NCBI GenBank assembly: GCA_049968235.1
Contig: JBMFRC010000001.1
Coordinates: 64,001 to 128,000 of the forward strand
Source: Candidatus Hydrogenedens sp.
GTDB taxonomy: Bacteria; Hydrogenedentota; Hydrogenedentia; Hydrogenedentales; Hydrogenedentaceae
DNA length: 64,000 nt
Direction: 5' to 3'
Part shown: piece by piece, positions 61,640 through 63,427 of the stretch
Position numbering within the stretch: the stretch's first letter is position 1
How the letters are laid out: each line of letters opens with the position of its first letter
The notes under the pieces: generated by a model
What the model was told of the DNA's origin: nothing
The model's input: the letters and a program-made list of their open reading frames with translations, nothing else
Databases searched by the model: none
Translations under genes and position numbers: made by a program

Positions 61640-63427
61640 TTACATTCCTGCGGGCATTCTCCTTGGTTGAGGAGTTCGTAGTCCGCACGGAATATCAATA
61701 GATTGACTAAACCAGCGCCTGAAATCAGAAACACCGGGCTGCGGCTTTTCGGTACAAACCCAGGCACTGACAGTGATTCTAACTGGTAAACGCTCAAAGA
61801 AAACAGTTGCAAAGGGTGATGTCTGACTGGGGTCTGTCCCTTTCATCTCGGTCCAGACCCTGTCTAAAAAGGCTGTTAAACATTCTGCTTGAGGAACCGT
61901 TAAAGATTCTGGTGGCAAAGAGAGGTAATGGGAGAAAAGAGGGATACTTCGTATATCATTAAAATACATTACGGTCTGGTTTTCTTCTGATTGATACGAA
62001 AAAATATTTCCGGGGAAAAGCATATCTGTTGAAGTTATTAAGCCATTGATTTCATCAATCCAGTAGGCATGAGCCCCAAAGCCATCTGCTAACACATAAT
62101 CCAGCGGGTTCTGTCCATTTGTTTCCCAGAAATTGTATAAGACTTCTGTGTTCGGGTATGGATTACCTGTCCCTCCGGTTAGTAGTTGATACAAATACAT
62201 CTGGTCTCGCCGTGCAATAGATAGGTCATAACTCCAGATATAAGGAGACAAATTTAATATACCTCCCTGACCTGTAATTGCGAGAACATTGGTTGGATTT
62301 CTTAATAGATTAAACCACTCGTTACAGAATTGTCGTGAATTATAAACTTGCATTAATAAAAGTCGTAATTCCGCTTTTCGGATGGTTATTAAATCATTTA
62401 CAAAATTTGTATCAATCGTTTGATAATTAGGATTATTTATGTAATTTCTTAAATCTTTAACAACATTCACAGAAGGGGTCTGAGTTTCTACCGGACTGAC
62501 CATACTCACACCGCTTTGTGTACCCGTTCCTTCAATTATAAAAGCATGTAATAGAGCATCAATAGTCGAATAACCTGTATAGGAAAACGGATTTTCAACC
62601 GTAGACAAATCAGGGTCGGGCATTGATTGGATTGCTGTTCCTGAAGAATCTATAAAACCTTTCTTTAATTCTATATCGATAATGTTTGCTTTTGTAGTTT
62701 CTTCGATACGGAATAAAGCCATTGGTTGAACACGAACGCGATATGCCTGTTCTTCTGATGACAATTGACCAATTACATTTGCCTCAGATTGCACTTCTGG
62801 AAATGGGTCTCCTGTGGTGAGCAGACTATCCAGATTGTTTACGATTGTAGTTACATCACAACCCGCGGGCAAACCCGCCTGAATTTTGGGAAGAATATCA
62901 TCAAAGAAATAAACGGCACTTTCATTGGGAATTTTATTGGCTTCTCGCTTCATTCCCTTTTCTTTGGAAATCCTATCCGGCAAATTATCCTTTGGTCCTA
63001 TTGGTAACCATGTTTCAAATACCGGGATGGATGGACTTGGAGCAAAGAAGTATGTTACTCTTCCTACCTGTCCATTATCCAGCATAGTTACAAAAGTTAA
63101 AGCGGTAGGAGTCCCATAAAATTGGACTTTTTCTCCGCGATTAGCAAGTGTACAAGCCCGTTCCAGATCGCGAGATAATATTTCCATAGCAGACCGTGCA
63201 TTCCCATAACTCTCTTTTACCATGTATCCCTGATGGGTAGATTCGATAGCCGAAACAAACATTGTAACCAGCCCTGTCAAAATAATGGATAATATAGCCA
63301 TCGCCACCACAAGTTCGATAAGTGTCATACCTGTTCTATATTTCGTATCACTTGTATATAACAACTCTACTTGTTTTTTATTGTTGTTCTGTAACATAGG
63401 TAACGAACCTTTCTTCTCTCCCATCAT
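61640..63427 (-). CDS. large (about 585-595 aa) type IV pilin-like pseudopilin (GspJ/PilW-like position)
   Basis: Class III signal peptide: ...KYRTG/MTLIELVVAMAILSIILTGLV, with Gly-1, Met+1 and Glu+5. The likely start is ATG 63397 (MLQNNNKKQ...) or 63427. Confidence 0.7.
   Translation of the reverse strand: MMGEKKGSLPMLQNNNKKQVELLYTSDTKYRTGMTLIELVVAMAILSIILTGLVTMFVSAIESTHQGYMVKESYGNARSAMEILSRDLERACTLANRGEKVQFYGTPTALTFVTMLDNGQVGRVTYFFAPSPSIPVFETWLPIGPKDNLPDRISKEKGMKREANKIPNESAVYFFDDILPKIQAGLPAGCDVTTIVNNLDSLLTTGDPFPEVQSEANVIGQLSSEEQAYRVRVQPMALFRIEETTKANIIDIELKKGFIDSSGTAIQSMPDPDLSTVENPFSYTGYSTIDALLHAFIIEGTGTQSGVSMVSPVETQTPSVNVVKDLRNYINNPNYQTIDTNFVNDLITIRKAELRLLLMQVYNSRQFCNEWFNLLRNPTNVLAITGQGGILNLSPYIWSYDLSIARRDQMYLYQLLTGGTGNPYPNTEVLYNFWETNGQNPLDYVLADGFGAHAYWIDEINGLITSTDMLFPGNIFSYQSEENQTVMYFNDIRSIPLFSHYLSLPPESLTVPQAECLTAFLDRVWTEMKGTDPSQTSPFATVFFERLPVRITVSAWVCTEKPQPGVSDFRRWFSQSIDIPCGLRTPQPRRMPAGM

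Follow-up and report, generated by a model that had tools for sequence, protein, structure and literature searches.

An open reading frame (ORF) of 595 amino acids (aa) on the minus strand of a 64,000-nucleotide (nt) window of Candidatus Hydrogenedens sp. DNA (assembly GCA_049968235.1, contig JBMFRC010000001.1, positions 64,001 to 128,000) likely encodes a minor pilin of the J class (GspJ/PilW-type) that belongs to a type IV pilus-like machine. In the predicted structure, its extra mass of about 320 residues is made up of three mostly helical loop insertions in a two-sheet J core. An earlier sequence-only reading of the window had described an ORF of about 590 aa, strand unstated, as an enlarged pseudopilin at the J/W position. 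The ORF is present, and its product is 100% identical to the GenBank entry 'MAG: PilW family protein [Candidatus Hydrogenedens sp.]' (MAG, metagenome-assembled genome), a name assigned automatically. The J position agrees with the I-J-K gene order, the prepilin-type protein and the predicted GspJ-class core, and the enlargement is about threefold over canonical GspJ (195 aa for E. coli gspJ; 192 positions in the TIGR01711 model).

The structural evidence comes from an AlphaFold (AF2) model built on a 98-sequence alignment (A2), with a predicted local distance difference test score (pLDDT) of 86.4 and a predicted template modelling score (pTM) of 0.86. A model built on the 15-sequence clade alignment was discarded (pLDDT 50). 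The gene and the segments of its product are as follows.

61640..63427, minus strand: J-position minor pilin precursor ORF, ATG start, 595 aa plus stop, extent as in GenBank
63395..63397, minus strand: ATG of Met11, the probable true start, kept in 8/8 loci, giving a 20-nt overlap with the I-type pilin gene
63329..63397, minus strand: leader peptide, residues 11-33 (1-33 if Met1 is the start), ending at Gly33, the predicted prepilin-peptidase cleavage site
63140..63328, minus strand: mature N-terminus Met34, Glu38 (+5) and long alpha1 helix, residues 34-96 (N_methyl; AF2 helix 36-96; hhalign to E. coli GspJ)
62999..63139, minus strand: first four-stranded beta-sheet, residues 97-143 (AF2 strands 103-105, 109-115, 121-130 and 137-143)
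62750..62998, minus strand: insertion 1, residues 144-226, mostly helical (AF2 helices 149-222), absent from the short relatives P0044, P0079 and P0098
62627..62749, minus strand: residues 227-267, a long strand (227-243) with two short ones, placed in the second J-core sheet
62096..62626, minus strand: insertion 2, residues 268-444, a helical region (AF2 helices 288-444), largely gapped in short relatives
61961..62095, minus strand: strands 445-479, residues 445-489, with invariant DGFGAHA and FSYQSEEN motifs, matched in distant relatives
61784..61960, minus strand: insertion 3, residues 490-548, helical (AF2 helices 498-536), of which 497-534 is missing in short relatives
61643..61783, minus strand: C-terminal strands 550-559 and 569-578 plus tail, residues 549-595 (RLPVRITVSAW...SDFRRWFSQSIDxPCGLR)

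The alpha1 helix includes the hydrophobic alpha1N segment, which is assigned to the membrane and the filament core. The division into core and insertions draws on the three short relatives, P0044 (371 aa), P0079 (357 aa) and P0098 (373 aa), which lack query residues ~143-226, several blocks within 254-418, and 497-534. Because the segments missing in these proteins are the predicted helical ones, the architecture is read as a J core with three loop insertions, and in the model both ends of the protein contribute to a single pilin core. Within the clade, core segments have a mean identity to the query of 0.81-0.89, and insertions 1, 2 and 3 one of 0.52, 0.68 and 0.75, respectively, insertion 1 being the fastest-evolving part. 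The C-terminal segment (549-595) is the most conserved, with an identity of 0.89 within the clade, and the first sheet (97-143), at 0.87, has an occupancy of ~1.0 in 84 distant relatives. Residues 231-250 are common to 93-99% of distant relatives, and residues 355-400 within insertion 2 are specific to the Hydrogenedens clade, with an occupancy of 0.00-0.01 at 361-370 and 381-400 in distant relatives. Four cysteines (Cys92, Cys190, Cys516 and Cys581) are invariant in the clade, a pattern that suggests disulfides. Neither domains in Pfam or NCBIfam nor PDB folds matched the insertions.

Large size characterizes the wider family as well. When 1.84 billion representative sequences were searched with a clade profile, 899 matched at E<=1e-3 and 166 at E<=1e-10, mostly 350-600 aa in length with a median of 465. 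The 899 distant relatives align in two stretches, query residues ~25-140 and ~430-590, with a core at 540-585 and a variable middle. Occupancy in 84 distant members defines common segments at 31-140, 231-250, 341-350, 431-500 and 541-585, with residues 191-220 and 361-430 mostly confined to the Hydrogenedens clade. Among 149 representatives the mature length has a median of 447 aa and a 5-95% range of 339-552. As judged from these alignments, size above that of GspJ is the norm in a J family of hundreds, and the 595-aa protein lies close to its upper end. Relatives that have a name go under 'type II secretion system protein J' or 'prepilin-type...', and their organism, where given, belongs to Hydrogenedentota. 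The genome loci retrieved with clade motifs come from Hydrogenedens-type MAGs, two of them with the record label 'uncultured Nitrospirales'. A locus search with the clade alignment reached Hydrogenedentota-type genomes only, and a homologue search seeded with the 98-sequence alignment yielded nothing beyond the close clade.

The N-terminus carries the signal expected of a type 4 pilin. It reads MMGEKKGSLPMLQNNNKKQVELLYTSDTKYRTG/MTLIELVVAMAILSIILTGLV, where the slash marks the predicted cleavage site, and the class III motif, ...YRTG/MTLIELVVAMAILSIIL, places G33 at -1, M34 at +1 and E38 at +5. The Pfam model N_methyl (PF07963) matches residues 29-53 with 29.4 bits (gathering score 21.2) and TIGR02532 scores 23.9 bits (cut-off 16.3), so that the protein carries the signal by which the type 4 pilin superfamily is recognized (IPR012902 / PF07963 / TIGR02532). 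The textbook class III signal followed by about 560 aa that the sequence-only reading had described is therefore found, with a mature part of 562 aa. Such signals consist of a hydrophilic leader ending in Gly or Ala, followed by ~20-25 hydrophobic residues, often with Glu at +5 (PMC10191384). Across 14 homologues G(-1) and E(+5) hardly vary; the leader otherwise differs in sequence (0.45 identity in the clade), yet G33 at its end is nearly invariant. The +1 residue in the 15 class III motifs of alignment A1 (query plus 14 homologues) is Met in 11, Ile in three and Val in one; among the 137 relatives with a G-x4-E motif it is Phe in 116, Leu in 8, Val in 6, Met in 5 and Tyr in 2. Met at +1 is thus, in the sequences compared, a clade-level substitution in a wider family that carries Phe. 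Since the class III definition (PMC10191384) fixes only Gly/Ala at -1, the hydrophobic stretch and a frequent Glu5, a non-Phe residue at +1 presents no conflict.

The start of the gene lies within the preceding 141-aa pilin gene. With M1 as the start the overlap, given earlier as 20-50 nt, is 50 nt; with M2 it is 47 nt, and with M11 it is 20 nt. Among the eight loci compared, the M11 ATG is kept in all, whereas the M1/M2 ATG is replaced by GTG in L009 and L010 and the Shine-Dalgarno-like stretch of the M1/M2 start is not conserved; M11 is therefore probably the real start, in which case the precursor has 585 aa, the leader 23 aa and the overlap 20 nt. Homologues P0012 and P0014 are annotated with a start at the M11 equivalent. 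The 'GEKKGSLPM' extension looks conserved in the J frame because the overlapped C-terminus of the upstream I-type gene (EERFVTYVTEQQ followed by the stop) is conserved across the eight loci. Under either start, M1 or M11, the mature protein has 562 aa. In E. coli K-12, gspI/gspJ and gspJ/gspK each overlap by 8 nt, and brief overlaps among I, J and K genes are normal.

Signal and homologues together bear on two ways in which this gene might be something other than a pilin gene of this length. An uncleaved bitopic membrane protein with a prepilin-like N-terminus would accord with the long leader (23-33 aa) and with Met instead of Phe at +1, but leader length varies among type 4 pilins (PMC10191384), the predicted core is of the pilin J class and the gene lies inside a pilin cassette. 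The G-x4-E motif, whose lack of conservation would have told against a pilin signal according to the sequence-only reading, is kept in 137/149 distant relatives; on this ground an uncleaved protein was rejected and is considered very improbable. The chance that the long ORF is a frameshift-fused or mis-assembled smaller pilin gene is close to negligible, despite its unusual length and a J in two pieces at the homologous locus L003. The sequence-only reading had suggested checking for a frameshift against read data; homologues were used instead of reads, and 13 full-length copies (577-603 aa, 52-88% identity) from independent assemblies align colinearly. Because length is kept in these independent homologues, the gene is not a chance ORF or a frameshift-fused product, and both of its ends build, in the model, the same pilin core. 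The sole short match (343 aa) comes from L003 (GCA_017880035.1), where a 1-nt indel in an A-run cuts J in two and the match covers its 3' part; K is also broken there. At 9312..11032 and 11118..18694 of this locus, J is split into 230 + 343 aa and K into three ORFs. These splits probably reflect long-read homopolymer error rather than pseudogenisation, and the aligned copies indicate that full-length J is the ancestral state.

For the assignment to the J class, the sequence-only reading had proposed alignment with GspJ and structure prediction beyond the N-terminal helix, and both point in the same direction. The best fold matches of the AF2 model include XcpW, GspJ and EpsJ, with the pilus protein TTHA1219 scoring equally well, and the model displays the J-type arrangement, in which alpha1 lies against a conserved sheet of four strands and a second beta-sheet is present. 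Independent support comes from hhalign comparison of the family profile with E. coli K-12 proteins, in which GspJ reaches 95.7% probability (E 8.5e-9), GspH 72% and GspK 1%. The gene lies between I-type and K-type genes, an order kept in L002, L011, L012 and L017. Several results weigh against this assignment. The hhalign similarity to GspJ is limited to alpha1 (residues 29-98), and TIGR01711 (gspJ) scores 16.4 bits over residues 33-97 only, well under its cut-off of 64.85. The Pfam T2SSJ and PilW models and the NCBIfam PilW model do not match the protein, a Foldseek search of the model against the PDB returned nothing at E<0.5, and the fold assignment comes from a predicted model, not a solved structure. 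No prepilin peptidase gene was found in the 64-kb window, and the assignment of the 2536-aa neighbour to the K position is positional and weak. PDB sequence searches with the single protein and the family profile retrieved generic pilin N-termini only. The commonest family-specific NCBIfam matches in the 98 members were all sub-threshold: Verru_Chthon cassette protein C in 56, ComGE (a short minor-pilin model) in 40 and gspJ in 38. The protein is accordingly J-class by fold, position and profile similarity, and not a sequence-level member of TIGR01711.

The genes around it form a cassette on the minus strand in the order I (141 aa), J (595 aa), K (2536 aa) and partner (1973 aa), followed by further components of the machine.

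63378..63803, minus strand: I-type (GspI/PilV-like) minor pilin, 141 aa, upstream of J, with G/FSILE at its N-terminus (PilV 4.9e-5; XpsI 1.2e-4 over 117 residues)
53923..61533, minus strand: K-position protein, 2536 aa, downstream of J, N-terminus G/AALVLAIG, no Glu at +5
47998..53919, minus strand: beta-helix protein with a Sec signal, 1973 aa, starting 3 nt after the K stop
46525..47922, minus strand: protein with three PEGA domains and an FGE-sulfatase domain, 465 aa, GldK/PorK-like (94 bits), between the tip partner and the PilM-like gene
39420..46270, minus strand: PilM-like protein of 696 aa, ORFs of 323 and 170 aa, and a secretin of 1085 aa

The 2536-aa protein, with the N-terminus G/AALVLAIGIIAILLAIG, shows a weak GspK N-terminal match (E 0.0079), a Lamin Tail Domain (LTD) at ~1370-1439 and many acidic DxDxDG-like repeats; hhalign of its family against E. 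coli GspK is likewise weak (9% probability). As a pilin, should it truly be one, it would be much longer than the 860 aa quoted as the extreme in PMC8179133. The 1973-aa protein gives weak right-handed beta-helix matches of pectate-lyase-like type (in the L017 orthologue, Pel9A-like/Beta_helix). As a possible PilY1 analogue it is a candidate for a non-pilin partner at the tip, and by analogy its C-terminus might contribute a beta-strand to K (compare PMC13533445). The PEGA/FGE-sulfatase protein is unusual among the components of type IV pilus clusters. No minus-strand terminator was found between J and K, and the promoter/terminator scan performed at chance level.

The platform and motor genes indicate the kind of machine. 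The 696-aa PilM-like protein scores 174 bits with TIGR01175 (cut-off 133) and 277 bits, below the cut-off of 650, with the Akkermansia 'Amuc_1101 family' model; the 323-aa and 170-aa ORFs between it and the secretin have no matches, and the 1085-aa secretin has a TPR region at its N-terminus and weakly matches the 'Amuc_1098 family' model. The arrangement from the PilM-like gene to the secretin resembles the Akkermansia Amuc_1098-1102 pilus-like locus. The genes upstream of the pilins were read from a small contig of the same genome and from related loci, in the order PilM, 171-aa ORF, PilB-like ATPase, PilT-like ATPase of 366-372 aa, PilB-like ATPase, PilC/T2SSF, two pilins of ~290 aa and the I-type pilin. 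The overall order is PilB-PilT-like-PilB-PilC-pilin-pilin-I-J-K-partner...PilM...secretin. The PilT-like ATPase and the PilM platform suggest a type IVa pilus-like machine rather than a classical type II secretion system (T2SS). At L002, L003, L011, L012 and L017 a PilB-like ATPase with MshEN (~610 aa), the PilT-like ATPase (366-372 aa) and a second PilB-like ATPase with MshEN (~585 aa) precede PilC; two extension-type ATPases within one pilus cluster are notable in themselves.

Elsewhere in the window, a 1633-aa protein (18383..23284, minus strand) with PKD and a full PhoPQ-activated pathogenicity-related domain (PF10142, E 8e-100) is unrelated to the pilus operon. A ParA/ParB (Soj/Spo0J) pair at 14198..15938 on the plus strand stands beside a seryl-tRNA synthetase, which fits a chromosomal region that is possibly near the origin. 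Cumulative GC skew peaks at ~26-38 kb.

Comparison of protein lengths across related cassettes shows how far the size of J follows that of its neighbours.

Window: I 141 aa, J 595 aa, K 2536 aa, partner 1973 aa
L002: I 141 aa, J 602 aa, K 2537 aa, partner at least 1212 aa
L011: I 128 aa, J 505 aa, K 2725 aa, partner at least 1465 aa
L012: I 135 aa, J 528 aa, K 2700 aa, partner at least 1045 aa
L013: I 132 aa, J 597 aa, K at least 1562 aa, partner not reached
L017: I 128 aa, J 371 aa, K 2492 aa, partner at least 1065 aa

The order I, J and giant K recurs in distant relatives whose J is only ~25% identical, and K orthologues of 2492-2725 aa (alignment A3; L011, L012 and L017) align over their full length at 34-36% identity. 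The giant-K cassette is real and conserved. J length ranges from 371 to 602 aa, nearly two-fold, beside K proteins of ~2500-2700 aa, and the six cassettes show no positive correlation between J and K length. The sequence-only reading had proposed that every member of the tip complex is enlarged, which does not hold for the I-type pilin: at 141 aa it is ordinary, and it is never enlarged in the cassettes compared. Of the co-adapted, oversized tip that the reading had drawn from this, the conserved giant-K cassette stands and the matching of sizes does not, with I normal and J not following K.

Size matching of this kind is the core of one alternative, in which the insertions dock or stabilize the giant K and the 1973-aa partner, and J grew because they grew. 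It gains from the giant K directly downstream in every recovered cassette that extends past J, from the large beta-helix partner gene that comes next in all four loci reaching past K, and from the good conservation within the clade of the C-terminal half, insertion 3 included. The L017 cassette speaks against it: a short J (371 aa) without insertions adjoins a K of 2492 aa and a partner of at least 1065 aa, so the insertions are unlikely to be required to accommodate K. More generally, K measures 2492-2725 aa whether J has 371, 505, 528 or 602 aa, and I is not enlarged. Strict J-K size co-adaptation was rejected on the L017 evidence, and the docking explanation as a whole is doubtful, though it retains some plausibility. 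A second alternative takes the protein as a true GspJ of a T2SS pseudopilus; it would then act at the end of a short piston in the periplasm that drives substrates through the secretin, and would not be displayed on a long pilus capable of retraction. In its favour, T2SS operons have this G-H-I-J-K-like gene order (E. coli compared), the top fold matches include XcpW, GspJ and EpsJ with GspJ as the hhalign match, relatives carry the pipeline name 'type II secretion system protein J', and a 2536-aa K is hard to picture passing a secretin. The motor and platform genes lead elsewhere: related loci carry a T2SSE ATPase of 366-372 aa without MshEN beside two PilB/GspE-like ATPases, which is the PilT (retraction) arrangement, and the assembly platform is PilM-type (TIGR01175, as above), not GspL/M/C. 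The pilus protein TTHA1219 also scores as high as the T2SS J proteins. A pseudopilus role is considered unlikely.

The preferred reading, a J-class minor pilin of a type IV pilus-like machine, suggests the following mechanism. In type 4 filaments, the PilHIJK/GspHIJK minor pilins form a tip initiation complex capped by a Glu5-less subunit, and polymerisation proceeds from tip to base, with Glu5 forming a salt bridge with the N-terminal amine of its neighbour (PMC10191384; PMC13533445). The precursor would enter the inner membrane via its hydrophobic alpha1N segment, and a prepilin peptidase, not encoded in the window, would cut after Gly33, leaving Met34 as the first residue, probably N-methylated, and Glu38 at +5. 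The mature 562-aa J would then pair with the 141-aa I-type pilin encoded directly upstream, and this pair, joined by the Glu5-less 2536-aa K-position protein, would give the initiation complex. The major pilin would polymerise on the I-J-K complex and leave it at the fibre tip. By analogy we infer the cleavage, the methylation, the formation of the I-J-K complex, its tip location and the role of the insertions. On the last of these, the least supported step, we lean towards lineage-variable additions that may provide exposed tip surfaces for ligand or partner contact and would not be needed for the I-J-K core.

A bolder extension of this scheme holds that Hydrogenedentota and their relatives build a type IV filament whose tip has >5000 residues of non-canonical mass (J 562, K ~2530 and the beta-helix partner 1973 aa), the J insertions forming a lineage-tuned adaptor or ligand-binding surface of this 'mega-tip'. 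We hold this to be speculative and rather unlikely. Were it true, the structure would be the largest pilin-borne tip assembly described, of use for example to grasp or process polymeric substrates, and how such a tip passes, or avoids, the secretin would become a question. Irrespective of this, the J position of the minor-pilin initiation complex tolerates large loop insertions, with proteins of ~350-600 aa in one family and the J core kept, which extends the modular-pilin idea from K-type and C-terminally grafted pilins to the J type. The conserved cassette in an uncultured phylum, with a K-position protein of ~2500-2700 aa, is more striking than J itself. For annotation the gene is ordinary, already PilW-family or T2SS-J-like in automatic pipelines.

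Among known systems, the nearest by fold are GspJ, XcpW and EpsJ (PDB 3ci0_J, 3nje and 2ret_B), which have ~190 aa in contrast to the mature 562 aa here. The present protein differs from them in its three helical loop insertions, in scoring well below the curated hidden Markov model (HMM) cut-off and in the surrounding machine, which is PilM/PilT-type and not GspC/L/M-type. It is also over two times as large as PilW-type minor pilins of type IVa pili, including Thermus thermophilus TTHA1219 (PDB 5g23), and matches no PilW model. The best-scoring named models are Verru_Chthon cassette protein C (TIGR02599, 361 positions) and HpsC (NF038304, 318 positions), likewise long J-position pseudopilins in multi-pilin cassettes, matched by 56/98 and 20/98 relatives, respectively. 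TIGR02599 scores 29.6 bits against a cut-off of 256.5 (model positions 1-59) and NF038304 29.1 bits against 200 (positions 15-81); as only alpha1 aligns and the scores fall far under these cut-offs, the protein belongs to neither family. Literature searched on Hydrogenedentes/Hydrogenedentota pili and on the 'Verru_Chthon cassette' contained nothing relevant, and no J-type pilin expanded by three helical insertions is described in the literature searched.

The closest parallel in principle lies with the large or modular minor pilins, of which >1200 are catalogued in InterPro: GspK with an inserted alpha-domain, ComZ of T. thermophilus with an inserted beta-solenoid, and PilB/PilC of S. sanguinis (PMC8179133). 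The pilin beta-sheet is where ComZ and GspK hold their extra domain (PMC8179133; PMC6561018). A modular pilin in this sense joins to its pilin module a distinct functional one that can be recognised by itself (Raynaud et al. 2021, PMC8179133). Their design, a pilin module that carries extra mass for display at the tip, is also the one proposed for the present protein; here, by contrast, the carrier is J-type and the extra mass lies in three helical insertions matching no recognised domain. The J protein is a size variation on the modular-pilin theme and not a new kind of system.

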